A stretch of 64,000 nucleotides of DNA from Acutalibacteraceae bacterium (GCA_045587645.1 JAZNCO010000099.1:63398-127397); one strand, 5' to 3'. Positions 7,516 to 62,894 are shown, counted from the stretch's first letter. Numbers and translations: made by a program. Notes: generated by a model from the letters alone, not told the origin.

Positions 7516-8757
7516 TTATTCAATTGCTGCACTTGTTCCTGCAAGATTACCTGTTGCAAATGCAATCTGCAGATTGAATCCGCCTGTATAAGCATCCACA
7601 TCAAGGACTTCACCTGCAAAATACAGGCCTTTCAGCAGCTTGGATTCCATGGTTTTCGGACTGACCTGCGAAACATTGACGCCGCCTGCTGTGACAATCG
7701 CTTCCTCAATGGGTCTTTTCTTTGTTACGGTCAACGGAAGCTCTTTTATCAGTGAACCGAGTGACTGACGATCATCACGGGTGATCTGATTGACACGCAG
7801 ATCAGACGGAATACCCGACAAGCGTACAATCACGGGAATCAGACTCTTGGGCAATAATTTAGCAAGCGCATTAGCAAGTGCTTTGTTCGGCATTTCAGCA
7901 AAATCACGCAAAATGCGTGCATCAAGCTGTTCATGTGACAGTGCAGGCTTTAAATCGATCAGCAATTGATATTTATCAGGCTTTATATCTGGCAGATGTG
8001 CCGATGCACTCAAAATAATCGGTCCCGAAACGCCGAAATGTGTAAAAAGCATTTCACCGAAATCAGTATACACTTCGCTGAATTTTTCGTTATCGTAAAC
8101 AGTGATGCGGACATTTTTCAGTGCAAGCCCTTGCGCTTCCCTAACCCATTTTTCCTGTGTTTCAAGAGGGACCAGAGATGGTCTCGGATCAACAATGCTG
8201 TGACCTGCCTGTTTTGCAAGTGCATATCCGTCACCTGTTGAACCCGTCAAAGGATAAGACATACCGCCCGTTGCAACAATAACCGCATCTGCATGATATG
8301 TATTGCCGCTTTCACATTTGACACCTGCAATGCAGCCGTCCTCATGCAACAAAGCAACAACGCGTTCTTCTTGTCGTTTTACACCGTTTTGCTTACAAAA
8401 TTTATCCAATGCATCTACAACATCAACAGCCTTATCCGATTCCGGAAAAACCCGATTTCCTCTTTCAATTTTCATGGAAACACCAAGATTTTCAAAAAAG
8501 TCAATCACATCATAAGGCATCATTCTTGAAAAAGCGGAATATAAAAACCTGCCGTTGGAAGGAATGAAATCCATCAGATCATTCAAAAGAGTACAGGCAT
8601 TGGTGACATTGCAACGCCCTTTCCCTGTTATCATCAACTTTCTGCCGGGACGGCTGTTGCGATCAAGCAACAAAACCTGTGCACCGAGCGAAGCGGCTTG
8701 TCCTGCAGCCATCATGCCTGCGGCACCTGCGCCGACAACAATAATTTTTTTGCTCAT
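7516..8757 (-). CDS. NAD(P)/FAD-dependent oxidoreductase, HI0933/BaiN-like flavoprotein
   Basis: KIIVVGAGAAGMMAAG is a dinucleotide-binding motif, and the C-terminal GEVLDVDAYTGGFNLQ motif is typical of the HI0933 family. The ATG at 8757 is preceded by GGAGG. The ORF-track start at 8778 is less likely. Confidence 0.8.
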   Translation of the reverse strand: MSKKIIVVGAGAAGMMAAGQAASLGAQVLLLDRNSRPGRKLMITGKGRCNVTNACTLLNDLMDFIPSNGRFLYSAFSRMMPYDVIDFFENLGVSMKIERGNRVFPESDKAVDVVDALDKFCKQNGVKRQEERVVALLHEDGCIAGVKCESGNTYHADAVIVATGGMSYPLTGSTGDGYALAKQAGHSIVDPRPSLVPLETQEKWVREAQGLALKNVRITVYDNEKFSEVYTDFGEMLFTHFGVSGPIILSASAHLPDIKPDKYQLLIDLKPALSHEQLDARILRDFAEMPNKALANALAKLLPKSLIPVIVRLSGIPSDLRVNQITRDDRQSLGSLIKELPLTVTKKRPIEEAIVTAGGVNVSQVSPKTMESKLLKGLYFAGEVLDVDAYTGGFNLQIAFATGNLAGTSAAIE

Positions 8758-18270: not shown

Positions 18271-20511
18271 TTAAACAAGTGAAATTTGTTCACCAGTGTC
18301 ATCAGGCGAGATAGTTGCACCTGCCGATGGCAAGGTTTTGGTTCGATAACGTGATGGCTTCACAAACTGTCCATCCTTATATGCAACAGCTGAGAGCAGA
18401 CGATGTCCTTTTTTAAGCTTCATGACCGCAACACCTTGCGTGTCTTTTGTGGTTTTTGATGCAATAACAGCAGAGTTCATAAGAAGAATTCTGCCGTTGG
18501 ATGAGGTCAGAACAAACTCAGCATCCTGCGAAATATGAGCAAAGGCTGCAATTTCAGATTTATCGGAATATGCCTTGAGGAGCTTTTTACGATTGGTCTT
18601 GGTTTCATAGGAAGCCATTTCGACCTTTGCAACCTTACCGTTTTCAAAGAAAAACAGCATCTGACCGCTGTAATCTTTTGTCACAGCCATAAAGATCGCA
18701 TTTTCGCCTTCATCCATTTTCAATTTTGATGCAACAAAATCACCGAGCACGGAAGCCTTGCATTCCTCAAAATCATTGCATTTTGCCTTGTATACCTGCT
18801 GGCGGTTCGTAAAGAACAACAAATCCACATTGTTGTTTGATTCAAAGCTTGCAATAATTTCGTCGCCCTCCTTGAGCTTGTGGTTATTGCCCATACGCCA
18901 GGATTGCGGTGTGATCTTTTTGAAGTAACCCTCTCTTGTAAAGAACAGCAAAACGTGATAATCGGGAATTTCTTCCTCAACATCTGCAACATCCTCATCT
19001 GCTTCATAAATGATTTCCGTTCTGCGCTCCTGACCGAATTTCTTGATTACATCGGTCAGTTCATCAACAATGATCTTCTTAATTCTTGCCTTGTGCGCCA
19101 GAATGTCTTCCATGTCAGCGATGTCTTTTTCAAGCTGTTCAACATCCTGCAGACGCTTGAGAATATATTCACGGTTCAGATGACGCAGTTTGATCTCGGC
19201 AACATATTCAGCCTGAATCTGATCAATACCGAAGCCGATCATCAGGTTCGGCACAACCTGACTTTCTTCTTCCGTTTCACGAACAATACGGATCGCTTTG
19301 TCTATATCAAGCAGAATCTTCTGCAATGCCTTCAACAAATGCAGACGGTCACGCGCTTTATTCAGATCAAAATAAACGCGTCTTTGCACGCATTCCGTAC
19401 GATAAGCAATCCATTCAAGTAGCAGATCCTTTACACCGAGCACCATCGGAGTGCCTGCTATCAGCACATTGAAGTTGCAGGTAAAGGTGTCTTCAAGCGG
19501 TGTCTTTTTGAACAGATTCTGCATGAGCTTTTCAGGATCGGCACCGCGTTTGAGATCGATCGTGATTTTCAGACCCGCCTTATCGGTTTCATCACGCACA
19601 TCGCTGATTTCACGAACCTTTCCCGTTTTGACAAGGTCTATGATTTTATCAATAATTGCTTCGCAGGTTGTGGTTGCAGGGATTTCTTTAATGTCAATAC
19701 AATTGTTGGACTTATCATATTCATATTTGGCACGCAATCTTATGGGGCCTCTGCCGCTTGCATAAACTTCAGCCATTTTCTGACGATCATAAATGACCTG
19801 TCCGCCACCTCTGAAATCGGGTGCAAGCATCGTATCCAAAACATCATGCTCAGGATTTTTAATCAGCGCAATGGTGGTTTCGCAAACCTCGCGCAGATTG
19901 AACGAGCAGATATTGCTTGCCATACCGACAGCAATACCCATGTTACTGTTTACAAGTATAGACGGAAATGTAACGGGAAACAGTGTTGGTTCCGTGGTTG
20001 TATTGTCATAGTTCGGAACAAAATCAACCGTATCCTTGTCAATATCGCGGAACAATTCAGCGCAGAAGCTTTCCAATTTTGCTTCCGTGTAACGGGATGC
20101 TGCGTACTGCATATTTTTTGAATATGCCTTACCGAAGTTACCCTTTGAATCAACATACGGATGAAGCAGTGCTTCATTGCCTCTCGTCAGACGGACCATG
20201 GTTTCATAAATAGCCGCATCACCGTGGGGATTGAGCTTCATTGTGCTGCCGACAATATTTGCGGACTTTGTTCTTGCACCGTTGAGAAGTCCCATTTTAT
20301 ACATTGTATAGAGGAGCTTTCTGTGAGAAGGCTTGAAGCCGTCGATTTCGGGGATTGCACGGGACATGATAACGCTCATGCAATACGGCATATAGTTGAT
20401 TTCAAGCGTATCGGTGATAAGCTGACTTTCAACAATCCCGGCACCTTGTATATGCGCACGATTGTCAACAGGCTGTTTTTCTTCTTCTTGCTTTTTCGGT
20501 TTTCTTGCCAT
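18271..20511 (-). CDS. parC: Type IIA DNA topoisomerase subunit A (topo IV ParC-like)
   Basis: MPYCMSVIMSRAIPEIDGFKPSHRKLLY and the active-site region AASRYTEAKL are present. No GyrA-box (QRRGGKG) was seen. The ATG at 20511 is preceded by GAGGAGG; the track start at 20529 is a TTG. Confidence 0.8.
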   Translation of the reverse strand: MARKPKKQEEEKQPVDNRAHIQGAGIVESQLITDTLEINYMPYCMSVIMSRAIPEIDGFKPSHRKLLYTMYKMGLLNGARTKSANIVGSTMKLNPHGDAAIYETMVRLTRGNEALLHPYVDSKGNFGKAYSKNMQYAASRYTEAKLESFCAELFRDIDKDTVDFVPNYDNTTTEPTLFPVTFPSILVNSNMGIAVGMASNICSFNLREVCETTIALIKNPEHDVLDTMLAPDFRGGGQVIYDRQKMAEVYASGRGPIRLRAKYEYDKSNNCIDIKEIPATTTCEAIIDKIIDLVKTGKVREISDVRDETDKAGLKITIDLKRGADPEKLMQNLFKKTPLEDTFTCNFNVLIAGTPMVLGVKDLLLEWIAYRTECVQRRVYFDLNKARDRLHLLKALQKILLDIDKAIRIVRETEEESQVVPNLMIGFGIDQIQAEYVAEIKLRHLNREYILKRLQDVEQLEKDIADMEDILAHKARIKKIIVDELTDVIKKFGQERRTEIIYEADEDVADVEEEIPDYHVLLFFTREGYFKKITPQSWRMGNNHKLKEGDEIIASFESNNNVDLLFFTNRQQVYKAKCNDFEECKASVLGDFVASKLKMDEGENAIFMAVTKDYSGQMLFFFENGKVAKVEMASYETKTNRKKLLKAYSDKSEIAAFAHISQDAEFVLTSSNGRILLMNSAVIASKTTKDTQGVAVMKLKKGHRLLSAVAYKDGQFVKPSRYRTKTLPSAGATISPDDTGEQISLV

Positions 20512-20525
20512 AGAATCCCCTCCTC

Positions 20526-22511
20526 TCAATAAATATCGGCCAATTCAATATACAGATGGCCATAATCAGCAATATGCTGTTTTCTTGCTGCAAGGTTATC
20601 TCCGAGCAGCATTTCAAATGTATCGTCAATCTGTGTCGGGTCTGAATTCGGTTCAACCTTAATGAGCCTTCTGGTCTGCGGATTCATGGTGGTCAGCCAC
20701 ATCATGTCGGCATCGTTTTCACCAAGACCCTTTGAGCGTTGGATAGTGTATTTTTTATCACCTATCTGCTCTAGCGCATCCTGCTTCTCTTTTTCAGTAT
20801 AGCAGAACCATGTTTCATCCTTGCAGGTGATTTCATAAAGCGGAGATTCAGCAATAAAAACCTTGCCTTCTGAAATCAATGACGGCATCAATGCATAGAA
20901 CATGGAAAGAATCAGCGTTCTGATCTGAAAGCCGTCCACATCCGCGTCGGTACAGATGATAACCTTGCTCCAGCGCAGGTTGTCAATATTGAATTCAGCA
21001 ACACCTTTAGCAGATTTATCCTTGATTTCAACACCGCATCCGAGAACCTTAATAAGGTCTGTAATGATTTCGCTCTTGAAAATCTTACTGTATTCGGCTT
21101 TAAGACAGTTCAGGATTTTACCGCGCACGGGAATAACAGCCTGAAAAGCGGAATCTCTTGCCTGCTTACAGGCACCCAATGCCGAATCGCCCTCCACGAT
21201 GAATATTTCGCGTTCGTTTACATCCTTACTGCGGCAATCGACAAACTTTTCAACCCTGTTTGCCATATCATTGGATGCAGTCAGAGTCTTTTTGAGATTC
21301 ATTCTTGTGGCTTCAGAACGAACACGCGAACGCATATTGATCAGAATCCGATCGCAGATTTTCTGCGCTTCCATTGGATTCTCAATGAAATAGATTTCCA
21401 GTTGATGACGGAAAAATTCGGTCATTGCTTCCTGGATAAACTTGTTTGTTATCGCCTTTTTTGTCTGATTTTCATACGAAGTCTGTGTAGAAAAAGATGA
21501 AATAACAAGAACAAGACAATCCTCAATGTCCTGGAATGTGATCTTGGAATCGGTTTTTGCATACTTTCCATTCTGTTTCAGATAGGCATCAATCTGAGAA
21601 ACAAAAGCACTGCGAACGGCCTTTTCGGGCGCACCGCCGTATTCAAGATAGCTTGAATTATGATAATATTCTTTTAATTGTATTTTTTCGGAGAACGAAA
21701 GTGCAGCATTGATTTTCAGTTTATAGTCGGGCTTGTCCGCGCGGTCGCGACCGACTCGTTCAGCAAACCAGATCTGAGCAGGTACAATACCTTTATCACC
21801 GAGAAATTCATTGATATAATCCTCAATGCCGTGCTCATACAAATATTCAAATGTTTCAAATTTACTTTCCGTCAGCTGGTTTTTGAGTACAAACTTAATA
21901 CCGGGATTAACAACTGACTGTCTTTTCAGCACATCCTGATAATAATCAAGCGGAATAGCAATATCGGTAAATACCTCAAGATCCGGTTTCCATCTGATGC
22001 GTGTACCCGTATCTCTCTTTTCATAAGACTCCTTGTGAAGTCCGCCGATATTCTCACCATGTTCAAAATGCAATTTATACAAAAATCCGCCGGAATGAAT
22101 TTCTGCATCCATAAATTCAGAAGCATACTGTGTTGAACAAAGTCCCAAGCCGTTAAGTCCTATGGAAAACTCATAATTACCACCGGAATTGGTATCATAC
22201 TTACCGCCTGCATACATTTCACAGAACAGCAGTTCCCAATTGTATCTTTGTTCATTATTATTGAAATCAACAGGCATACCGCGGCCAAAATCCTGGACTT
22301 CAATACTGCGGTCAAGATACCGTGTGATAACAATTTTATCGCCGTAACCCTCTCTTGCTTCGTCTACAGAGTTAGAAATGATTTCAAAAACAGAATGCTT
22401 ACAGCCTTCAAGACCGTCATCACCAAAGATAACAGCAGGACGTTTTCTGACTCGGTCAGCACCCTTTAACGAAACAATACTGTCATTTCCGTATTCGCTC
22501 TTCTTTGCCAT
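20526..22511 (-). CDS. parE: Type IIA DNA topoisomerase subunit B (topo IV ParE-like)
   Basis: LKGADRVRKRPAVIFG forms the GHKL ATPase N-terminus, and the Toprim region has EGDSALG and ICTDADVDGFQI. It lies immediately upstream of the A subunit. Confidence 0.8.
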   Translation of the reverse strand: MAKKSEYGNDSIVSLKGADRVRKRPAVIFGDDGLEGCKHSVFEIISNSVDEAREGYGDKIVITRYLDRSIEVQDFGRGMPVDFNNNEQRYNWELLFCEMYAGGKYDTNSGGNYEFSIGLNGLGLCSTQYASEFMDAEIHSGGFLYKLHFEHGENIGGLHKESYEKRDTGTRIRWKPDLEVFTDIAIPLDYYQDVLKRQSVVNPGIKFVLKNQLTESKFETFEYLYEHGIEDYINEFLGDKGIVPAQIWFAERVGRDRADKPDYKLKINAALSFSEKIQLKEYYHNSSYLEYGGAPEKAVRSAFVSQIDAYLKQNGKYAKTDSKITFQDIEDCLVLVISSFSTQTSYENQTKKAITNKFIQEAMTEFFRHQLEIYFIENPMEAQKICDRILINMRSRVRSEATRMNLKKTLTASNDMANRVEKFVDCRSKDVNEREIFIVEGDSALGACKQARDSAFQAVIPVRGKILNCLKAEYSKIFKSEIITDLIKVLGCGVEIKDKSAKGVAEFNIDNLRWSKVIICTDADVDGFQIRTLILSMFYALMPSLISEGKVFIAESPLYEITCKDETWFCYTEKEKQDALEQIGDKKYTIQRSKGLGENDADMMWLTTMNPQTRRLIKVEPNSDPTQIDDTFEMLLGDNLAARKQHIADYGHLYIELADIY

Positions 22512-22736
22512 GGAATCCTCCATTATAATATTTCATTATATAATATTACACTACATCATGTTCTTTCGTCAAGTATTATTTTCCATATATCATTAATACC
22601 ATCGGCATGTTTAAAAAAATTTTTCAAAAAAAATGAAAAATATCAAAAAAAGACTTGATTTCTTGAAAAGTTTATGCTAATATAATCGGGCACCAAGTGA
22701 GAGTGCTCAAACGTAAAGTGAAAGGTCGGTATAATA

Positions 22737-23006
22737 ATGCCTATTTACGAATATATCTTTGGTTTCATTATGATTGCTTTGGCAATCGGACTTATTGTTT
22801 TGATTCTCTTCCAGCAGAGCCGTAACTCCGGTCTTTCCGGTGCTATTGCAGGTGGTTCCGATAACTTCTTCGGAAAGAACAAAAGCAACAGCAAAGACGA
22901 AAAACTTGCAAGACTTACCAAGATTCTTGCTGTCGTTTTCTTTGTTATCACATTGTTTGCAACTTTCTTCTTCGCTTTTATGAAGGGTAAGTACGGCATA
23001 GCCTGA
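22737..23006 (+). CDS. secG: Preprotein translocase subunit SecG
   Basis: 89 aa with two TM helices and the SGLSGAIAGGSDNFFG motif. Confidence 0.85.
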   Translation: MPIYEYIFGFIMIALAIGLIVLILFQQSRNSGLSGAIAGGSDNFFGKNKSNSKDEKLARLTKILAVVFFVITLFATFFFAFMKGKYGIA

Positions 23007-23080
23007 TCCAGTAGCTCAGCAGGCAGAGCACCTGCCTTTTAAGCAGGGTGTCCGGAGTTCGAATCTCCGCTGGATCACCA
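23005..23080 (+). tRNA. tRNA-Lys (anticodon UUU) with encoded CCA
   Basis: Hand-folded cloverleaf: acceptor GATCCAG/CTGGATC, D arm GCTC..GAGC, anticodon stem CCTGC/GCAGG with loop CTTTTAA, T arm CGGAG-TTCGAAT-CTCCG, discriminator A and CCA. Confidence 0.9.
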
Positions 23081-39830: not shown

Positions 39831-39835
39831 GTCAA

Positions 39836-39858
39836 AGCACCGCATCAGCGGTGCTTTT
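39836..39858 (+). terminator. Rho-independent terminator abutting the helicase gene stop
   Basis: Stem AGCACCGC, loop ATCA, stem GCGGTGCT, then TTTTGTT. It ends 1 nt before the convergent stop codon at 39860. Confidence 0.65.
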
Positions 39859-39859
39859 G

Positions 39860-42097
39860 TTATATCGCATCAGATTGCCAGGATTCAATTCTCTCTTTCA
39901 TGCCTGCAATATCGAGAATCCCATAGGCAAAGCCCTTCCTTACAAGTGAAACCGGTAAAAATTCATCATATTTTTCAAATAGAGGCACTTCATTTTCATA
40001 AACAAGCTCAAGAGGATCGAATTCCTTGTCACTCTCCGCTTTTAACACTTTAAAAAATGTTGCCGCATCGGCATTCATTCTAAATTGTATAAAATATGGC
40101 CTTGAAGCATCCAAACCTTTTAGTCCGAGTGCATCTGCACATTTTATCTTTAAGAAGCGTTCCAATGCAAGAAATGCATAACTTCCGAGCCACGGAAACA
40201 AACACCACATATCGCCGCCGAGATTGATAAGCGATTGCGACACAACACCTGAATAAACTGCCGTTTGTCGCGACTGTTGAAGTCGAACAGCGGCATTTTT
40301 CATTATGTATGGATATGACTTATCTTCCGCAAGTACCATACGCATGCGTTCAAGCACCTTCGTATGCACTGCGCCCGGACATTCTCCGAAATAAGCAGGA
40401 ACCTTCCCCCTTACCTGCAGACAATAGACCAATCTGCGCTTATGATCCACTTCATCAACAAGCCATACATGACCGGCAATGGCTATTTTTTCACCCGGAG
40501 GTGGCGGCATAACAAGAGTACCGAGCTCATGCGAACCACAACGTACAGTATATTCTTCACTTTCCTGAAAAACAGCATAGAATTTGAATGAATTGATCTG
40601 TCTTTCTCCTGCAAGTCCAACGATCAAGCCACCTTCATCTGTTCTCTGTATATGATTTGTATCCAATAAGTGTCTCAATAAAACTTTATAATCATCCTGC
40701 GTAATACGTCGGAATGCCTGCAGCGGTAACACTTTGGATGCCAGCTGTGCCGCAGACATTTCTCCGCAGGAAGCAAGCGTTGACATGGTCTGATGATATA
40801 AAAGGCTGAACGGTAATCTGTCAAGCTTCGGCGGCTCAACCCACCTTTCCTCCAGATACAATTGAATTAAAGCAATTCCCTGCAAAAGCTTCCAAGGAAC
40901 GGTTTCAGGCAACATTGCGCGTGCCTCTGCAATGTCTTCACGGATAACAAACCACATTTCAGGCGGCAAATCACGACGGCCTGTTCTTCCGAGGCGTTGT
41001 AAGAAGGAGGAAACTGTAAAAGGTGCATCAATCTGAAAAGCCCGTTCCAATCGACCGATGTCGATACCCAATTCAAGCGTAGCCGTTGTAATGGTTGTTT
41101 GAAACTGTTCATCGTCCTTCATAACAGCTTCTGCTGTTTCACGATAAGATGCGGAGAGATTACCGTGATGAATCAAAAAACGATCAGGCTCATGATTCAA
41201 CTCGCAATAGCTGCGCAAGGTTGTCGTGACTGCCTCGCACTCCTCTCTTGAATTCACAAAAACAAGACACTTGCGATCTCTTGTATGCTCAAATACATAC
41301 CCAAAACCGGGATCTGCATGATCAGGAGCATGATCTGTCGGAGCACTCAGCACAGGCAAAACAGACTCTGTCTGTAATGCCGATTCGGATTGCTCACCTT
41401 GCACATAAAAATGCTCCATCGAAATTCGCCATCGAACCTTTTCTGCCTGCAATTGCGGAATCAATGTTTTTCTACCGGTTCCGGAAGATAAATAATCACC
41501 CATTTTCTGCGGTTCACCGAGTGTTGCCGACAAACCGATTCGGCGCGGATTTACCCCTGCAAGCTTCGACAAACGTTCAATCAGGCATATAGTTTGTCCA
41601 CCACGGTCACCGCGTAAAATAGCGTGAACCTCATCGATCACAATATATCGAAGATCACAGAACAGCTTGTTAATATGCGAATGCTTACGCATAAGCAAGG
41701 CCTCAAGAGATTCAGGGGTGATCTGCAGGATCCCCGACGGATTTTTTAATAGCTTATTTTTGTGTGATTGAGAAACATCACCGTGCCAGTGCCATACAGG
41801 AATATCTGCCTCACGACAAAGATCTGCAAGTCGGTAAAACTGATCATTTATAAGTGCTTTTAGTGGGCCTATATACAAAGCACCGATTGAACAAGGTGGA
41901 TTTTCATACAGGTCTGTTAATATCGGAAAGAAGGCAGCTTCTGTTTTTCCGGAAGCGGTTGAAGCACACAATAAAAGATTATCATCGGTTTCAAAAATCG
42001 CTTCTGAGGCAGCAATCTGCACAGCACGCAGGGATTGCCATTCATTGCTGTAAATAAAATCCTTAATGAATGGTGCATAGCGGTCAAAATAGTTCAT
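39860..42097 (-). CDS. Lhr/BrxHI-like DEAD/DEAH (DEVH) SF2 helicase, Shango SngC-like
   Basis: Motif I ASTASGKTEAAF, motif II IVIDEVHAIL, motif III GLSATLG and motif VI QRLGRTGRR, with a long C-terminal domain. It starts 2 nt after the upstream ATPase gene. Confidence 0.85.
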   Translation of the reverse strand: MNYFDRYAPFIKDFIYSNEWQSLRAVQIAASEAIFETDDNLLLCASTASGKTEAAFFPILTDLYENPPCSIGALYIGPLKALINDQFYRLADLCREADIPVWHWHGDVSQSHKNKLLKNPSGILQITPESLEALLMRKHSHINKLFCDLRYIVIDEVHAILRGDRGGQTICLIERLSKLAGVNPRRIGLSATLGEPQKMGDYLSSGTGRKTLIPQLQAEKVRWRISMEHFYVQGEQSESALQTESVLPVLSAPTDHAPDHADPGFGYVFEHTRDRKCLVFVNSREECEAVTTTLRSYCELNHEPDRFLIHHGNLSASYRETAEAVMKDDEQFQTTITTATLELGIDIGRLERAFQIDAPFTVSSFLQRLGRTGRRDLPPEMWFVIREDIAEARAMLPETVPWKLLQGIALIQLYLEERWVEPPKLDRLPFSLLYHQTMSTLASCGEMSAAQLASKVLPLQAFRRITQDDYKVLLRHLLDTNHIQRTDEGGLIVGLAGERQINSFKFYAVFQESEEYTVRCGSHELGTLVMPPPPGEKIAIAGHVWLVDEVDHKRRLVYCLQVRGKVPAYFGECPGAVHTKVLERMRMVLAEDKSYPYIMKNAAVRLQQSRQTAVYSGVVSQSLINLGGDMWCLFPWLGSYAFLALERFLKIKCADALGLKGLDASRPYFIQFRMNADAATFFKVLKAESDKEFDPLELVYENEVPLFEKYDEFLPVSLVRKGFAYGILDIAGMKERIESWQSDAI

Positions 42098-42099
42098 TC

Positions 42100-43413
42100 T
42101 TATACCTCAAATTCTGCAAAGGAACCTGCCTCTGCCTCTTGCAGCGGCGTTTTTGCAAATGAGAAATCCTGTGATGACAATAATTGAGAAATGCTTGTTT
42201 GCGGATTTTGCTGAATAATATTCAGTAATTCAATAAAATCACGGATCACTTCACGGGGAGTGATACTTGAATCGGCTCCGATCCTTCCGTATTCAATTCT
42301 GATAAACGAAATCAGATCAGCCTGCGTCAAAATCGGGTCATAAGAATACAATACTGCATGAATATCACGAAGTTTCTCTACAAGAATCAGCATTTCTTCA
42401 TTCGTCAGAGCATTCAGACGGATAACAGGTGCAAGAAGATCGGTCATCTTACTATCCGAAAATCGGCCTGCCTGCAAACGGGAACGAAGTGCTTCATAAC
42501 TGAAGATACCGCGGTGTCTGTCTTCCATTGCCTGGGGTGTCGCACACATAATAAATCCCATATACTGCGACTTTCCCTGCAATGCATCATTGTATATTGT
42601 CAGCAATTTTTCATAATTATATTGCCGCGTGATACTGTTCGGAATTTTATAGATATTCACCAATTCATCAATCAATATCAGCATTCCGTTATAACCTGCC
42701 AATTTCAAAAATGCAGAAAAGAGTTTAAGATAATCATACCAGTCCTCATCCGTTATACAGATATTGATACCAAGTTCGGCTTTTACCTCTGTCTTGTTCA
42801 CATATTCACCGCGAAACCATTTTAAAACAGCAGCCCGTTTTTCCTGTTCATCATTCTTTACTGCAAAATAATAAACAGATAGAAGCTTTCCGAAATCAAA
42901 TCCGTGAACAAATTCAGTCAAAGAATCAATAATGGAGTGAATCTTCAGTAAAACAAGTTCATCAAATACATCATTTTGCAGCTGTGCACCATGCTTTGTA
43001 ATGACTTCATGCTGAATACCACTGATCCAGCGATCCAGGATCAAAGGCAAAGCACCGCCTTCAGGTCTTGTTTTTGTAGACATATTACGAATCAACTCAC
43101 GATATGTTGCCAGACCTTGTCCTTTGGTTCCCTGCAATCTTCTTTCAGGCGAAAGATCTGCATCCAGAACAACAAAATTGCGATCCATGCAATACGCTCG
43201 GATGGTTTGCAATAAAAAACTCTTACCGCTGCCATACTTACCCACAATGAATCGAAATGCCGAACCACCCTCGGCAATAATATCAACATCATGTAACAAA
43301 GCATTGATTTCATCTTTTCTGCCGACCGTAATATACGGCAGACCGATTCGAGGTACAACGCCGCCTTTCAACGCATTCATGAGTGTTTGAGCAATTCTTT
43401 TCGGTATATTCAT
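42100..43413 (-). CDS. DUF2791/BrxD-like P-loop ATPase, Shango SngB-like
   Basis: GGVVPRIGLPYITVGRKDE...FRFIVGKYGSGKSFLLQ contains the Walker A motif, and MLILIDELVN is the Walker B motif. It has a 4-nt overlap with the upstream gene. Confidence 0.8.
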   Translation of the reverse strand: MNIPKRIAQTLMNALKGGVVPRIGLPYITVGRKDEINALLHDVDIIAEGGSAFRFIVGKYGSGKSFLLQTIRAYCMDRNFVVLDADLSPERRLQGTKGQGLATYRELIRNMSTKTRPEGGALPLILDRWISGIQHEVITKHGAQLQNDVFDELVLLKIHSIIDSLTEFVHGFDFGKLLSVYYFAVKNDEQEKRAAVLKWFRGEYVNKTEVKAELGINICITDEDWYDYLKLFSAFLKLAGYNGMLILIDELVNIYKIPNSITRQYNYEKLLTIYNDALQGKSQYMGFIMCATPQAMEDRHRGIFSYEALRSRLQAGRFSDSKMTDLLAPVIRLNALTNEEMLILVEKLRDIHAVLYSYDPILTQADLISFIRIEYGRIGADSSITPREVIRDFIELLNIIQQNPQTSISQLLSSQDFSFAKTPLQEAEAGSFAEFEV

Positions 43414-44882
43414 AAACCAAGATATCCTTTCAAAAAATCTTCATAATCTTCCGGGATTATGGGTTTGTCATCCTCGAAAATAATGACTGTATCATTGCAT
43501 TCATCAAACAACAACTCATTGATTTCATCACATAAAAGTCCAATCGTTGTATTATTTTCTTTCAGAAGCTCAGAAAACGGTTCATTGTTAAGAAGATGTA
43601 TAAGAAACTTTGTCTGCAACGGATTCAGGATTGCAGGTTCACATTCCGTTTTATCTGCTTTTAGCAGCAGTTCTTCTTTTGCATCATCATTATAAATCAA
43701 AAGTCGTTCCTGTGTAACAGCAGCATCATTTCTGATTACATTCAACATGTGCAGATCTATTTCAATTTTTGGAGCTTTTTCATATTGTTCACGGATTATA
43801 TAGTTTTCGATGCAACGCTGAACAGTTTCTTCCCATTCAATCGGAATTGAGCCACCTTTTAAGCTGTGATTAAAGTGATATTGTCTTCGTAAAAAACAGT
43901 CAATGGTTCTCAAAAGCTCTCCGACACGCTGTAATCTTCCGGCAAAAGGGATAAACTGTATGCATTGCCATTGCCCTTTTGTATAAAAATATTCTTCTGC
44001 ATCACTGACCTTATATTCATAGTCTTCTCTGCGAATTCGGTCATAAAAGACAGCTCCGGCAAACAAAGATCGCTTACCGGTGTTAAAAGAACCGAAAAAG
44101 AAATCACGATCAGGAAACAAGCTGCTGCTTTTATAATACTTATTCAGTTCTCTCACAACATCTGCAATAACGGCAATACACACATCACTTTTGTATTTAA
44201 AAAACCGAGAAGCCTGCATGTTATAAGAAGAAATTTTCTGTAAAGCATCATAAACATCACGATCAGGGTGATTTTCTGCATCAACTAAAATCACCATATC
44301 TGATTTATCATTAAATGAAGGAATTTTTTTCAGGAACTCTGCATTCAGATTATAATATATACAATAATCCTTCAGCCATCTGTTCATATAAGTTTCAATA
44401 TAATAATCCAGTGTACGATATTCCTGAAAAAAATCAAACAGCTTCAAAAAACCATCCTCTGCATTTGTTGCACCAATACCGTTTATCAATTCATAAATGT
44501 AAACATAAGCAAATGAAAGAGATGTTTTGTGTATTTCACCTTTTCTAACTTTTGTACGCCATGTGAAATAATAACGCAGTTGTGCATCAGACATTGATGA
44601 ATAGGTCGGATAATACCGTAAAAATTCGACATTGTGCTCATAATAATCCTCATGATGCTCCATAAAACGCGCTTGTTTATAAAAAATCTGATTTTCAGGC
44701 TCGTTATAAGCTTTTCTTGCAATATCGCGCATATTTCTGTAGACAGGTGGTGTAAAATTTGCCATCTGAGATGCGGTCATCAAAATCGGTTCATCACGAT
44801 ATATTTTTTGTGACAAATTCTCTTTTTCAGATAAATGACTTTCCGCTAATACTCTGTTTAACAGATCCTGATCCGATGCCAT
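43410..44882 (-). CDS. TerB-N plus TerB-C domain protein, Shango SngA-like
   Basis: TerB-N signature YYPTYSSMSDAQLRYYFTWRTKVRKGE...FAYVYIYELINGIG. The C-terminal region LLCDEINELLFDECNDTVIIFEDD is TerB-C-like. No TM segment was seen. Confidence 0.75.
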   Translation of the reverse strand: MASDQDLLNRVLAESHLSEKENLSQKIYRDEPILMTASQMANFTPPVYRNMRDIARKAYNEPENQIFYKQARFMEHHEDYYEHNVEFLRYYPTYSSMSDAQLRYYFTWRTKVRKGEIHKTSLSFAYVYIYELINGIGATNAEDGFLKLFDFFQEYRTLDYYIETYMNRWLKDYCIYYNLNAEFLKKIPSFNDKSDMVILVDAENHPDRDVYDALQKISSYNMQASRFFKYKSDVCIAVIADVVRELNKYYKSSSLFPDRDFFFGSFNTGKRSLFAGAVFYDRIRREDYEYKVSDAEEYFYTKGQWQCIQFIPFAGRLQRVGELLRTIDCFLRRQYHFNHSLKGGSIPIEWEETVQRCIENYIIREQYEKAPKIEIDLHMLNVIRNDAAVTQERLLIYNDDAKEELLLKADKTECEPAILNPLQTKFLIHLLNNEPFSELLKENNTTIGLLCDEINELLFDECNDTVIIFEDDKPIIPEDYEDFLKGYLGL

Positions 44883-44917
44883 AATATACTCCGTAAGATA
44901 AATCGAATGTTTGTTCT

Positions 44918-44946
44918 ATTATAGCAAACTTTTGTTTGCTTTTCAA
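44918..44946 (-). promoter_or_regulatory. Near-consensus sigma-A promoter of the three-gene operon, with an embedded palindrome
   Basis: Minus strand reads TTGAAA (44946-44941), a 17-nt spacer, then TATAAT (44923-44918). The spacer is the palindrome AGCAAAC-AAAA-GTTTGCT. GGAG lies 7 nt before the ATG at 44882. Confidence 0.6.
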
Positions 44947-45032
44947 GATAAAAAATGGAATCAGGTTTATTTTTTTTATTTTTATTCAAAAAAAAATAGT
45001 AGATAAAAAAATTTTAATGATGAACAAAAATC

Positions 45033-48860: not shown

Positions 48861-49577
48861 CTATATATCTTCTTTTTCGATTTCTTTTTTTAGTCTTTTC
48901 AGTATTTTCTTCTCAAGGCGTGAAATATAGCTTTGAGATATTCCCATCAAATCAGCAACCTCCTTTTGTGTATACTCTTTATTGCCGAACAGTCCGAAAC
49001 GAAGGGTAATGATATCCTTTTCTCTTGAAGGCAGCCTTGCAACACATTGCATCAACAATTGAATATCATCCTCATTTTCAAGATCAGCACCGACATTCTG
49101 CACAGGGTCTGTCAAAACATCACTGAAATGCAATTCATTGCCGTCCCAATCCGTATTCAACGGTTCGTCCAGCGAGACCTCATTACGAAGATTGCCATTC
49201 TTACGCAGATACATCAATATCTCATTACTGATACATCTACTTGCGTATGTAGCCAATTTAATATTTTTATCTGGGCAGAATGTATTTACAGCTTTGATCA
49301 AACCGATCGTGCCGATCGAAACAAGATCCTCTTGAGCAACACCTGTATTGTCAAATTTTTGCGCTATATAAACAACAAGGCGCAAATTATGCACAATTAA
49401 CGGCTCTCTCGCTGAATTATCACCATTTAATATTCGTTCAAGTAAATCATTTTCTTCATTGTTTTTAAGTGGAGCAGGAAGCACCTGCGGACCACTGACA
49501 TAATAGACTCCTCTATTTCCGATAAGCCATAAATATAATTTATAGATTCCTGACAGATTATCTGTTGCTATTTTCAT
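48861..49577 (-). CDS. sigE: Sporulation sigma factor pro-sigma-E
   Basis: Pro-sequence followed by [45 protein letters not shown] and [18 protein letters not shown]. It lies directly downstream of spoIIGA. Confidence 0.9.
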
Positions 49578-59698: not shown

Positions 59699-60925
59699 TT
59701 ATTCAATAACCACTTTCAGGAATATCTTTTTGCCTTTTTTGACAACAATGTAACCCTTTTCAAAAGCATCCTTGGAAATAACAGTATTGGGTGCTGTCAT
59801 TTTTTCATCGTCAACAGAAATACCGCCCTGTTCAATGAGTCTTCTGGCTTCACCCTTGGAGGGGGCAAGCTTGGTTGTTGCAAGAAGAGCAGTCAGCATA
59901 ATGCCGCCGTCAACGAAATCTGTTTCGCTGATTGCTGCGCTGGGCATCGTGGAAACATCTGCGCTGTTGGAAAACAGAGCCTTTGCAGTAGCTCTTGCCT
60001 TTTCAGCTTCTTCTTCACCATGGATGAGCTTGGTTACTTCGTATGCAAGTCTTTCCTTAACCGCATTCAGTTCGCTGCCGGTGCACTTTTCATATTCGAC
60101 AATTTCTTCAAGAGAAACGAATGTGAGCATCTTCAGGCACTTGATAACATCGGCATCGTCAACGTTTCTCCAGTACTGATAGAATTCATATGGAGAAGTC
60201 TTTTCGGGATCAAGCCAGACGGCACCTCCTTCGGTTTTGCCCATCTTCTTGCCTTCACTTGTAAGCAGAAGATTAAAGGTCATACCGTAGACTTCCCTGC
60301 CGTCACAACGGCGATTCAGCTCAATACCGCCGATGATATTGCTCCACTGGTCATCACCGCCGAGCTGCATAATACAGTTCTGTGTGCGTGCAAGATGCAG
60401 GAAGTCATAGCTCTGCATGATCATGTAGTTCATTTCAAAGAAGGTAAGTCCCTTTTCCATTCTCTGCTTGTAGCATTCAGCAGCAAGCATACGATTGACA
60501 GAGAAATGCACACCGATTTCACGCATGAAATTGATGTAGTTGAGATTCAGAAGCCAATCGGCATTATTAACCATAATGGCTTTTCCGTCAGAAAAGTCAA
60601 CAAGACGGGACATCTGCTTGCGGAAGCATTCAATGTTGTGATCAATGGTTTCACGGGTGAGCATTTTTCTCATATCGGTCTTACCCGAGGGATCACCGAC
60701 CATACCCGTACCGCCACCAAACAGTGCAATGGGTGTGTGACCTGCTCTCTGCATGTGTGCCATTACCATAACCTGCACAAAGTGTCCGACATGAAGGCTG
60801 TCTGCCGTGGGATCAAAGCCGATATAAAAACGAATCTTTTCATTGGTGATAAGATCCTTGATTTTTTCTTCATCCGTAGTCTGTGCAATCAAACCTCTTG
60901 CTTTGAGTTCTTCAAAAACAGTCAT
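59699..60925 (-). CDS. tyrS: Tyrosine-tRNA ligase
   Basis: HVGH motif (SLHVGHF), a KMSKS-like KKMGKTE motif and a C-terminal S4 domain. Confidence 0.92.
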
Positions 60926-60939
60926 TTGTTTTTCCTCCT

Positions 60940-61195
60940 AAAAAATAACGTCCCCGGAAATACTCCGAGGACGCAGAATAAGCGTGGTACCACCTCAGTT
61001 TATCATACCCTCACGGATATGACCTTACGAAGTCAAAAAACTTCCGGCGCTGTAACGTGCGCACACGACAATACCTACTATCAGTTCAGCATTGCAGCTC
61101 AGGGATGTATTTCTACTGTTCCTCACGGTTTCTTACACCAACCGAAACCTCTCTTCGCATCAGACATCAGTTTACTTCTTCCCGTCTCAGCCATT
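60940..61195 (-). promoter_or_regulatory. T-box leader (tRNA-Tyr sensing) of tyrS
   Basis: On the minus strand: stem I region with GCGAAGAGAGG; specifier loop AGTAGAAA-TAC-A, with the UAC Tyr codon at 61109-61107; T-box GGTGGTACCACG at 60994-60983; and terminator GTCCTCGGA...TCCGGGGAC plus TTATTTTTT at 60972-60940. Confidence 0.85.
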
Positions 61196-61201
61196 GAAAG
61201 T

Positions 61202-61235: not shown

Positions 61236-62894
61236 TTATTTTAACACACCTGCATCCACAAGCAACTGCCTTGCAGCATCCCGATGCACCTGTGTAAGTG
61301 TTATACCGCCATTCATACGGGCAAGCTCATTGATTCTGCCATCCGTATCAAGTGCTGTTATGGATGTATATGTCTTATCATCACGAACAGTTTTTTCAAT
61401 CAGAAAATGTTCGTCTGCACGGCAGGCAATCTGCGAAAGATGTGTAATACACAGCACCTGCCTGTTAATAGCAGCTTGTTTAAGTTTTTTTCCGATCTTT
61501 TCTGCTGCCCTGCCGCTGACACCGGCATCAATTTCATCAAAAATCAAAGTACCGACAATATCCTTATCCGCAAGAGCATTCTTGATTGCCAGCATCACAC
61601 GGGACAATTCACCACCTGAAGCAACCTTTGTCAAGGGTTTTGCATCTTCTCCGGGGTTAGCGGTAATATAGAATTCAATGGCATCCGTACCCGTTTCGGA
61701 TGGTTCAATCGGAGTAAACACAACAGAAAATTCCGCATTGGGCATATCCAGAAAATGCAATTCGTTTTCTATACAAATACGAAGCTTTTCAGCAGCTAAT
61801 CTGCGATTGTCAGAAAGCACTTTTGCAGCTTCTTGCAACGCCTGCTCTGCTTTATCACATTTTACCTGTAATTTCTCTATAACTGCTTGTGCATTCAACA
61901 AATTATCATATTCATCCCGACAATTCTGCAGAAACGCAAGCATTTGTTCTTCATCATTACCATACTTTTTAGAAAGCCGGTACAATAGATCCAGGCGCTC
62001 TTCAATCTGATCCAGATCTGCACCTGCTCCGTCGACCTGGGACAATACAGAAGCGGTTTCGTCACGGCAATCGGATAAAATTGCAATTGCTTCATGGATA
62101 CTGTTATTCAGTGCAGATACAGAAGGACTGACCTTTGCCGCAGATTCGATACAATGCACGGCATCATCAGCAGATGAAACAGCCGTGTCAAGTGAAGCAA
62201 AAGCACCGTTGAGAGCTTTGTTGAGTTTATCGAGATTGCGGATCATCTTTTTTTGCGCATTCAACTGATCGCGCTCACCGACTTTGATATCGGCAACCTC
62301 CAGTTCACGGATCTGATATTGCAAAAGATCCATTCTGCGGTCTTTATCCGCTTCTGCCTGCAGCGCTTTTTTAAATTCAGCTTTGCATGTAGACCAAGAT
62401 GTAAAAGCATCTGTATAAGCATTGAAATTATCTTCAAGATCACCATATCGGTCTACATATTGATAATGTTGCTCTGCATTCAACAAATCCTGACTATCAC
62501 GCTGACCGTGAATATTCATCAGCATCATTCCGATTTTGTGCAAAACAGAAACTGTGACCGTTGCACCGTTTACATGACAAATATTTCTGCCGTCCTTGTA
62601 CAGCTTACGGTTCAACAAAAGACTGCCATCCTTTTCAACAGGCAACCCCAACGAAAGCAGCATTTCGTTAACCTGTTCTGCGACAAAAGTAAAATAAGCC
62701 GAAACATGAGCCGAAGCACATCCTGTACGAATGAGTTCACGGGATGTCTTTTCGCCGAGAACGGCATTGATTGAGTCAATAATAATTGACTTACCTGCAC
62801 CTGTTTCACCAGTCAACACATTAAATCCGTTGACAAAATCAACAGATGCTTTTTCAATGATGGCAATATTTTCAATCTGTAAATTGAAAAGCAT
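61236..62894 (-). CDS. recN: DNA repair protein RecN
   Basis: N-terminal Walker A GETGAGKSIIIDS, a long coiled coil and the C-terminal signature ASGGELSRVMLA followed by LIFDEIDAGVSG. Confidence 0.92.
   Translation of the reverse strand: MLFNLQIENIAIIEKASVDFVNGFNVLTGETGAGKSIIIDSINAVLGEKTSRELIRTGCASAHVSAYFTFVAEQVNEMLLSLGLPVEKDGSLLLNRKLYKDGRNICHVNGATVTVSVLHKIGMMLMNIHGQRDSQDLLNAEQHYQYVDRYGDLEDNFNAYTDAFTSWSTCKAEFKKALQAEADKDRRMDLLQYQIRELEVADIKVGERDQLNAQKKMIRNLDKLNKALNGAFASLDTAVSSADDAVHCIESAAKVSPSVSALNNSIHEAIAILSDCRDETASVLSQVDGAGADLDQIEERLDLLYRLSKKYGNDEEQMLAFLQNCRDEYDNLLNAQAVIEKLQVKCDKAEQALQEAAKVLSDNRRLAAEKLRICIENELHFLDMPNAEFSVVFTPIEPSETGTDAIEFYITANPGEDAKPLTKVASGGELSRVMLAIKNALADKDIVGTLIFDEIDAGVSGRAAEKIGKKLKQAAINRQVLCITHLSQIACRADEHFLIEKTVRDDKTYTSITALDTDGRINELARMNGGITLTQVHRDAARQLLVDAGVLK

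Follow-up and report, generated by a model that had tools for sequence, protein, structure and literature searches.

The 64,000-nucleotide stretch of Acutalibacteraceae bacterium DNA analysed here (GCA_045587645.1, JAZNCO010000099.1:63398-127397; "the window" below always means this whole length) carries three tightly packed minus-strand genes, sngA, sngB and sngC, whose products match the components of the anti-phage system Shango. A sequence-only reading of the same DNA had proposed an operon of this type, with a 4-nt overlap between the first two genes, a 2-nt gap before the third and one strong promoter in front, and its gene boundaries agree base for base with a mechanical list of open reading frames (ORFs). 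The genes and signals of the locus are as follows:

43410..44882, minus strand: sngA, 490 amino acids (aa), from the mechanical ORF list
42100..43413, minus strand: sngB, 437 aa, from the mechanical ORF list
39860..42097, minus strand: sngC, 745 aa, from the mechanical ORF list
44946..44918, minus strand: operon promoter, TTGAAA-17-TGcTATAAT, 11 of 12 matches, the best promoter-like site of the region
44926..44937: putative LexA operator 1, in the promoter spacer and abutting the -10 element, AAACAAAAGTTT on the coding strand
44905..44916: putative LexA operator 2, one base past the -10 element, GAACAAACATTC on the coding strand
44889..44892, minus strand: ribosome-binding site GGAG, 6 nt 5' of the sngA ATG, from reading of the sequence
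39834..39857: bidirectional terminator-like hairpin with a 10-bp stem, 6 G-C pairs and a 4-nt loop
39831..45100: the whole accessory segment, about 5.3 kb, from the dac stop codon to the yfcC start codon

Both junctions were checked on the sequence: sngA and sngB share the four bases ATGA (43410-43413), and positions 42098-42099 separate sngB from sngC. The promoter, TTGAAA-AGCAAACAAAAGTTTGC-TATAAT-AGAACAAACATTCGATT, combines a -35 element (TTGAAA, 44946-44941), a 17-nt spacer and an extended -10 element (TGcTATAAT, hexamer at 44923-44918), and this near-consensus site bears out the single strong promoter expected for the operon. The hairpin lies between the convergent dac and sngC genes and marks the left end of the accessory segment, whose neighbours in the window are dac, a major facilitator superfamily (MFS) transporter and the genes for YfcC, an Mbeg1-like protein and Zip. 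The kilobase at 44001-45000, which holds the 5' half of sngA and the promoter, has the lowest G+C content of the window (0.328, against an average of about 0.42).

Profile searches were run against Pfam, the PADLOC models and NCBIfam, and about 90 related loci, numbered with the prefix L, served as the comparison set. All three proteins match their Shango models in PADLOC (SngA 3e-66, SngB 1.1e-180, SngC 2.5e-269), each above the models of paralogues from BREX (bacteriophage exclusion) systems. Among the Pfam domains anticipated by the sequence-only reading, TerB_N, TerB_C, BrxC_BrxD (formerly DUF2791), DEAD and Helicase_C were found in agreement with these assignments, whereas DEAD_assoc was not detected; the same search of SngC did not detect DUF1998 either. 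The three genes are adjacent and co-directional, as in the definition of Shango, and they keep the order A-B-C in all 55 complete related loci. NCBIfam has no model for SngA, and its BrxD and Lhr-type helicase models score far under their cut-offs; in RefSeq, the homologues are named 'TerB N-terminal domain-containing protein', 'ATP-binding protein' and 'DEAD/DEAH box helicase'. Judged by these matches, the three genes make up a complete Shango (SngABC) system in the sense of Millman et al. (2022) and Johnson et al. (2023). It is an ordinary copy of a known system, with no new component, and standard defence finders would annotate it automatically. Homologous operons give modest to good protection against phages in E. 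coli (Millman et al. 2022) and in P. aeruginosa, where the operon is that of PA14 cDHS1 (Johnson et al. 2023); the reported effect has been described as modest, 10-100-fold. Papers up to 2025-26 still find the action of TerB-containing defence proteins unclear, so the earlier statements on Shango, including its unsolved mechanism, are consistent with the literature.

SngB is covered end to end by the Pfam family BrxC_BrxD (PF10923, 4e-162), and its Walker A (GKYGSGKS at 58, with K64) and Walker B (LILIDE at 245, with D249/E250) motifs are intact, which confirms the P-loop ATPase with a DUF2791/BrxD pattern that had been read from the sequence. The PADLOC SngB model matches over the full length with 599 bits, against 150 bits (2.2e-44) for BrxD, and NCBIfam BREX_BrxD reaches 151 bits against a cut-off of 350, below the equivalog level. 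Across 25 loci from several phyla, the mean column identity of SngB is 79%. By these profiles, SngB is a BrxD-family P-loop/AAA+ ATPase but not BrxD proper.

In SngC, the helicase motifs I (ASTASGKT at 45, with K51), II (DEVH, 155-158), III (SAT at 190) and VI (QRLGRTGR at 367) are all intact, and Pfam recognises DEAD (2.7e-26) and Helicase_C (4.9e-16). The PADLOC SngC model aligns residues 3-736 with profile positions 5-716 of 720 (894 bits), and the BrxHI model also matches over the full length (4e-121, 403 bits). The best sequence match in the PDB is Lhr (5v9x, 1.9e-27), with MrfA also near, and Lhr 5v9x is the top Foldseek match as well (6.5e-13), obtained from a low-confidence AlphaFold2 model (predicted local distance difference test, pLDDT, 49.8). 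A WH_Lhr domain directly after RecA2 scores below threshold (E 0.01, 15.7 bits against a cut-off of 27). The Lhr-type models of NCBIfam reach 89-195 bits against cut-offs of 849-1496; the best match in that database, a ligase-associated DNA-damage-response DEXH helicase, is likewise far under its cut-off. SngC is grouped with BrxHI, DruE and DpdJ. It appears to share the BrxHI layout, comprising a superfamily 2 (SF2) motor, a winged helix, a small beta-barrel and an Lhr-CTD-like (C-terminal domain-like) region, for which the full-length BrxHI profile match is the best evidence. On these profile matches, SngC is an SF2 DExH helicase of the BrxHI/Lhr-like clade, related to Lhr but not a member at the equivalog level. 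The sequence-only reading, which spoke of a DEVH SF2 helicase of Lhr/BrxHI type, therefore stands as regards the DEVH motor, provided that the type is taken as likeness to BrxHI and not as orthology to Lhr, whose models remain under their cut-offs.

SngA matches Pfam TerB_N (1.1e-30) and TerB_C (8e-12), both above their gathering scores, and residues 43-486 align with positions 66-525 of the 528 in the PADLOC profile. The motifs quoted earlier for all three proteins were found in the translations, in SngA YYPTYSSMSDAQLRYYFTWRTKVRKGE (90-116), YVYIYELINGIG and the acidic tail LLCDEINELLFDECNDTVIIFEDD. The C-terminal 127 residues (364-490) are acidic, with an isoelectric point (pI) of 4.26, and no membrane segment was found in any of the three proteins, the highest 19-residue Kyte-Doolittle mean being 0.93, in SngA. 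Pfam, pI and hydropathy thus agree with a TerB-N signature, an acidic TerB-C-like end and a protein without a membrane segment. The AlphaFold2 model of SngA (mean pLDDT 85.7) begins with a disordered N-terminus bearing an invariant Y28-R-D30-E-P-I-L motif (YRDEPIL). It continues with an all-helical TerB-N domain (about 37-252), a four-stranded beta-rich middle unit (264-312), long helices and an acidic disordered linker (398-415), and ends in a helix-helix-helix-hairpin unit at 421-487 (TerB-C).

The only Foldseek match to the SngA model is about 70 residues long and is to the winged-helix DNA-binding domains of LysR-type proteins. From the secondary structure, this segment presumably corresponds to the C-terminal end of SngA, where protein binding or DNA mimicry seems more plausible than DNA binding because the pI is about 4. 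In the conservation map, the TerB-N core (58-135) stands out as most conserved, along with the N-terminal motif and the stretch 441-480. The residues invariant in the family are mostly aromatic or arginine (Y105, F106, W108, R109, R113, Y130, E131, W169 and others) and form no metal-chelating or catalytic constellation. From its sequence features, SngA is a non-enzymatic, cytoplasmic protein. Neither SngA nor SngB has a sequence or profile relative in the PDB, where the searches returned just P-loop noise and a NusG fragment (E > 0.09). PHROGs gave no match for either protein and generic helicase matches for SngC.

Several observations on SngA-like sequences elsewhere may be recorded here. A 43-residue 'TerB-C domain' fragment from Siphoviridae sp. 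ctCsv15 (BFVD A0A8S5LZC6) aligns with the SngA model with a template modelling (TM) score of 0.75 on the target and 27% identity, at a non-significant E of 3.2, and might hint at phage-borne TerB-C pieces. Some SngA proteins possess an extra N-terminal domain (L064:8047-8540; L090, upstream of 4382) with the motif ...W-D-x-x-T-G-x-E-x-x-x-C-D-x-x-C...P-Y-L-S-x-P-F-R-M, which the short SngA of the window lacks; in L090, the RefSeq start of sngA seems to truncate it. At L082:8651-8762, and also in L083 and L084, the database call of sngA (527 aa) extends 5' across the conserved promoter and both LexA-type boxes. In L082, translation most likely starts instead at an ATG near 8674 (MSENNDLL...), for a protein of about 490 aa.

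The three genes have evolved at very unequal rates. Over the 55 complete loci, the median identity to the window proteins is 29% for SngA and 66% for both SngB and SngC. Among close relatives, nonsynonymous divergence (dN) is 0.19-0.22 for sngA, 0.06-0.09 for sngB and sngC, and 0.03-0.11 for the flanking housekeeping genes, so that sngA diverges about three times as fast as its partners and the flanking genes. The comparison with L081 shows where the change sets in: nucleotide identity stays at about 0.8-0.9 across yfcC, sngC and sngB, falls from 0.94 through 0.72 to 0.58 within 300 nt at the sngB/sngA junction, and ranges from 0.58 to 0.79 across sngA. Between the window and L081, the sngA alleles are 66% identical, against 90-91% for sngB and sngC. 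Because the synonymous divergence of sngA in this pair (1.89) is about twice that of sngB (0.85) and yfcC (0.80), the data hint at allele replacement besides fast protein evolution. Given that SngA is far more divergent than SngB and SngC, and that the drop falls exactly at the sngB/sngA junction, SngA likely confers specificity or acts as sensor, or else is what phage counter-defence aims at, while the motor pair that carries it is under strong constraint.

Compared with the Shango systems of E. coli and P. aeruginosa PA14 cDHS1, the window operon comprises the same three families in the same order, again with no recognisable effector domain. It differs in its host, an uncultured Firmicute from an animal gut, and in standing as a solitary insertion among housekeeping genes rather than in a defence island. 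Its SngB is only about 37% identical to those of enterobacterial plasmid copies. Its SngA is a short form of 490 aa that starts at PADLOC profile position 66, against 769 aa in the Klebsiella IncF copy and 644 aa in L064, and its promoter bears LexA-type operators, which the Klebsiella copy lacks. The BrxD-BrxHI dyad of type-2 BREX is the nearest relative of the other two subunits, SngB and SngC being full-length homologues of BrxD and BrxHI. BrxD has been described as a standalone ORC/Cdc6-type AAA+ ATPase forming a 'tightly linked dyad' with BrxHI, for which a helicase-loading role was proposed, and BrxHI as an SF2 motor with a winged helix-turn-helix, a beta-barrel and an Lhr-CTD-like domain (PMC12839542). 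SngB and SngC probably correspond to this loader-helicase pair. Unlike type-2 BREX, the window contains no methyltransferase, PglZ, BrxC or PglW, the partner gene here encodes a TerB-N/TerB-C protein, and the Shango models score about 2- to 4-fold higher in bits.

More distant likenesses concern single subunits. SngC shares its DExH motor with Lhr/Lhr-core (M. smegmatis, PDB 5V9X) and MrfA (PDB 6ZNP), but the sequence match is confined to the motor domains, and the operon of SngC also encodes an AAA+ partner and a TerB-N protein. Bunzi BnzA and Dionysus DinB contain, like SngA, a TerB-family module proposed to act as a sensor; in those systems, presumed to monitor the membrane, its partners are transmembrane or pore-forming effectors, whereas SngA lacks a membrane segment and has DNA motors as partners. 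Hachiman (HamAB) is a mechanistic analogue rather than a homologue and offers, with an SF2 helicase that surveys the state of DNA, a precedent for a helicase as sensor. Its HamA is a nuclease effector, of which Shango encodes none, and its HamB is a Ski2-type helicase from another clade than SngC.

The genomic context was compared using YfcC orthologues (80-95% identical) as anchors. L001, L002 and L082/L083 have the operon flanked by the same neighbours, and L081 has it next to YfcC, while it is absent from L085, L088 and L089. In L087 the order is MFS - dac - (ArgZ-like) - YfcC - Mbeg1-like - Zip with the operon site empty, only 33 bp lying between dac and the ArgZ-like gene. Because of this empty site within the same neighbourhood, the operon is accessory, yet it is inherited in place across several species and not freshly acquired. 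The dac-yfcC interval, whose comparison among relatives had been proposed as a check, therefore does not hold a universal core locus. No integrase, transposase or target-site duplication was seen at the boundaries of the segment. Other genes also come and go here: in the closest genome (L001:13705-17439), four metabolic-looking genes separate sngC from dac, which by the look of the sequence alone may be glycosyltransferase, purine-nucleoside-phosphorylase-like, amidohydrolase-like and nucleotidyltransferase-like genes. L002 and L082 have an ArgZ-like gene in the space separating sngA from yfcC, and the dac-yfcC interval is a small hotspot of gene gain and loss.

The closest SngB copies (82-89% identical) come from metagenome-assembled genomes (MAGs) of Oscillospiraceae, Acutalibacteraceae and Clostridia from animal guts, and an SngA with 99% identity is found on a short ENA contig. 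No exact match to the sequences of SngB, YfcC or dac was on record, and a metagenome scan with YfcC gave no relative. The host is an Oscillospirales (Oscillospiraceae/Acutalibacteraceae-like) gut bacterium, and the operon is a chromosomal accessory insertion. The three-gene unit also occurs in MAGs of Firmicutes, Desulfovibrio, Treponema and Chloroflexi, SngB and SngC being 62-74% identical across phyla. Homologues were found on 696 plasmid records, 542 of them conjugative, and on no phage record; among the plasmid records with an SngB homologue, 449 are from Klebsiella and 144 from Salmonella. On Klebsiella IncFIB/IncFII conjugative plasmids (L095:2152-9470), a long-form Shango (SngA of 769 aa) adjoins a Lit-family phage exclusion gene. 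In C. estertheticum, plasmid pCF002-344 (L090:9575-12121) carries an 848-aa ATP-binding-cassette-domain protein gene 18 nt past sngC and a relaxase gene 5' of sngA, and may represent an extended Shango variant.

No second complete defence system emerged when the remaining 49 window ORFs were scanned with PADLOC, in keeping with the claim that the operon is the sole clearly accessory conflict locus of this DNA. Matches to mad3, mad8, MzaA, LmuB, PtuA and AbiLi were discarded, as they trace to RecN, to an ABC ATPase or to a short local match. One of the proteins concerned, of 238 aa (48861-49577, minus strand), matches PADLOC MzaA over residues 54-120 (4.5e-18), with no other Mza component nearby.

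The operon promoter holds two 12-mers of the Gram-positive LexA (Cheo box) type, always 21 bp apart. According to a study of the C. difficile regulon, the clostridial LexA consensus is GAACnnnnGTTT/GTTC, with GAACnnnnnTTC also accepted (PMC4234289). Box 2 fits the GAACnnnnnTTC form, and box 1 is one mismatch from GAACnnnnGTTT, whose exact form occurs in relatives, so that by this standard a LexA-type operator overlaps the promoter. Box 1 reads GAACAAAAGTTT in L001, L002, L005 and L081, GAACATAAGTTT in L003 and GCACAAATGTTT in L082; box 2 reads AAACAAATGTTC in L003 and AAACAAAAGTTC in L005. The boxes are conserved in seven members of the lineage, with substitutions that keep at least one good half-site per box, and the block from the -35 element to about +25 is conserved in L001, L002, L003, L005, L081 and L082, in contrast to the diverged rest of the intergenic DNA. 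Within the window, the box pair occurs at a single location, the operon promoter, against 0.24 pairs per window in composition-matched shuffles. In 1.4 Mb of related loci, 20 pairs were called: 10 lie at sngA promoters of the lineage (8 loci, L001 and L002 being counted twice), and one is the lexA promoter of L016, where AAACAAATGTTT and GAACAAATGTGC stand 21 bp apart with one box abutting the -10 element. More broadly, one or more boxes occur in the 160 bp 5' of sngA at 16 of 65 loci. The background is 0.064 per 160 bp, and the enrichment becomes modest once related loci are collapsed.

Two related loci place a lexA gene beside Shango itself. At L064:7420-9981, a lexA-like gene (197 aa, with an S24 peptidase end), whose leader carries GAAACATTTGTTTC, ends 33 nt 5' of a co-oriented long-form sngA (644 aa). 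The product of the lexA-like gene is 37% identical, as an approximate value, to B. subtilis LexA. Shango may be co-transcribed with lexA in this Clostridia MAG. At L016:9354-10570, the end of sngC has an 11-nt overlap with an extra ORF of 182 aa, which is possibly a fourth gene and is followed by a convergent lexA (224 aa). Considering the conserved box pair and its resemblance to the lexA promoter of a relative, SOS-inducible expression of the operon is predicted in this lineage, where the operon probably belongs to the LexA regulon.

Several observations pull the other way. Each window box has one non-consensus half-site (AAAC and ATTC, respectively), and an alternative reading takes the two boxes as direct repeats of GAACAAA at a distance of 21 bp, to which another regulator could bind. 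The window contains no lexA gene and, taken as a whole, no enrichment of GAAC-N4-GTTC (18 sites against 22 expected). The recN gene is a classical SOS gene in other Firmicutes; that of the window, a RecN-like SMC-family gene (61236-62894, minus strand) placed 11 nt after a 168-aa gene, has no LexA-type box and so offers no SOS calibration inside the window. Beyond the lineage, LexA-type boxes are weak, variable or absent at the Bacillus, Paenibacillus and C. estertheticum plasmid loci, and one Klebsiella plasmid locus has no E. coli-type SOS box. A universal SOS link of Shango, which we also considered, is rejected on the strength of these loci.

Taken together, these data can be arranged into a mechanism. 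In undamaged cells, LexA bound to the two operators that bracket the -10 element would keep the operon low. DNA damage, phage replication intermediates or prophage induction would then activate RecA, LexA would be cleaved, and the three proteins would be made in fixed proportion. SngA, a hypervariable, non-enzymatic protein whose TerB-N core is conserved and whose acidic tail would be a winged helix, might serve as the sensor or specificity adaptor for a phage component or a state of phage DNA. SngB, an ORC/Cdc6-like AAA+ ATPase of the BrxD family, might use ATP to load or license SngC, and SngC, as a BrxHI/Lhr-like DExH translocase, could track on phage DNA or RNA:DNA intermediates and dismantle replication or recombination structures. 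Phage DNA replication would be stalled directly, or the DNA exposed to host nucleases. Pfam, PADLOC and hydropathy recognised no nuclease, toxin or membrane effector domain in the three proteins, and because none is encoded, we infer that direct interference by the motor is to be favoured over toxin-type abortive infection.

As an overall explanation, we lean mildly towards a complete Shango defence operon working by this model, with LexA as gate, SngA as sensor, SngB as loader and SngC as motor. A stronger version, which we put forward tentatively and hold to be less probable, is both SOS-gated and modular: the LexA operators would shut a very strong promoter until RecA is activated, and a near-invariant motor pair would carry a hypervariable SngA, exchanged or diversified as a cassette and setting target specificity. 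SngA is likened here to the specificity subunits of type I restriction systems. There is also evidence that weakens the model. The blocking or killing step is pure conjecture, with no recognised effector domain to anchor it, and Foldseek found no whole-protein fold relative of SngA in the PDB or BFVD at E <= 0.001 that would point to its ligand. The SngC model is poor and was built from a shallow alignment (75-91% identity), and the C-terminal half of the protein (about 400-745) is family-specific and assigned solely through the full-length BrxHI profile match. Synonymous divergence (dS) is saturated (>1), which makes dN/dS unusable as a sign of positive selection on sngA. Finally, five or more related species share the operon in syntenic position, as might also be expected of a host-beneficial role other than defence.

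That synteny, together with the lack of an encoded toxin or nuclease, is what would be expected if the operon were an SOS-induced host module for DNA-damage processing or repair, built of an Lhr-like helicase, a loader and an adaptor, whose anti-phage effect elsewhere is a side effect. The LexA-type operators in the promoter and the lexA genes adjacent to the operon in L016 and L064 would fit such a module, as would the repair helicases Lhr and MrfA being the closest solved relatives of SngC and the DNA-damage-response helicase being its best NCBIfam match, albeit far under the cut-off. A repair module should, however, not be cleanly missing from sister genomes with the same neighbourhood, nor be spread across phyla with SngB and SngC still 62-74% identical and travel on conjugative plasmids beside other exclusion genes. 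The fast divergence confined to sngA is typical of an arms race, and cloned homologous systems protect against phage. We therefore consider this account unlikely. The same low standing is given to the idea that the target is plasmids or mobile DNA entering by conjugation or transformation, or induced resident prophages. SOS gating would presumably coincide with prophage induction and with incoming single-stranded DNA, the many plasmid homologues and the lack of any on phage records fit competition between elements, and the modest size of the reported anti-phage effect is compatible with another principal target; but the only published phenotypes are anti-phage, and the sequence does not discriminate between targets.

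Two further explanations start from the names of the protein families. The operon could be a remnant or satellite of type-2 BREX (Pgl), namely the BrxD-BrxHI pair typical of that system stripped of its methyltransferase/PglZ core and placed beside an unrelated TerB-N gene; the matches of SngB to BrxD and SngC to BrxHI and the Pfam family name BrxC_BrxD would speak for it. However, the Shango models outscore those of BREX for SngB (599 against 150 bits) and SngC (894 against 403 bits), and the NCBIfam BrxD score lies well below its cut-off. The other 49 window ORFs contain no PglX, PglZ, BrxC or PglW-type match (PADLOC, E <= 1e-8), and sngA is joined to sngB by the 4-nt overlap and the order A-B-C common to all 55 loci. 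A BREX remnant is thus very improbable, and effectively refuted by the model scores, the core genes missing from the window and the fixed gene order. Least credible of all is a tellurite or metal stress (Ter) system, for which the domain names TerB_N and TerB_C are the sole support: there is no match to the TerB domain proper, no terZ/A/C/D/E-type genes lie nearby, and the absence of a membrane segment and the mostly aromatic and arginine invariant residues of SngA, rather than a metal-chelating cluster, argue against it.

Like many other validated defence systems, Shango acts by an unsolved mechanism, and the window copy alone does not open it. What is new here is the empty-site proof of accessory status, the short form of SngA, its sharp hypervariability, the probable equivalence of SngB-SngC and BrxD-BrxHI, and the putative LexA-type dual operator. 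The rate contrast points to SngA as the subunit likely facing the phage, the likeness of SngB-SngC to BrxD-BrxHI links two unsolved systems, and LexA/SOS is a likely input signal in Firmicutes. If the SOS link is true, a helicase-based defence would stand under the DNA-damage response in gut Clostridia, which would bear on how SOS-inducing antibiotics reshape phage-host dynamics in the gut.

Elsewhere in the window, a T-box leader (60964-61197, minus strand; Rfam RF00230, 122.9 bits) lies 5' of a 408-aa gene at 59699-60925. Genes for two type II topoisomerase subunits, one GyrA/ParC-like (752 aa) and the other GyrB/ParE-like (665 aa), occupy 18271-22523 on the minus strand, and a tRNA-Lys(ttt) gene is located at 23005-23080.

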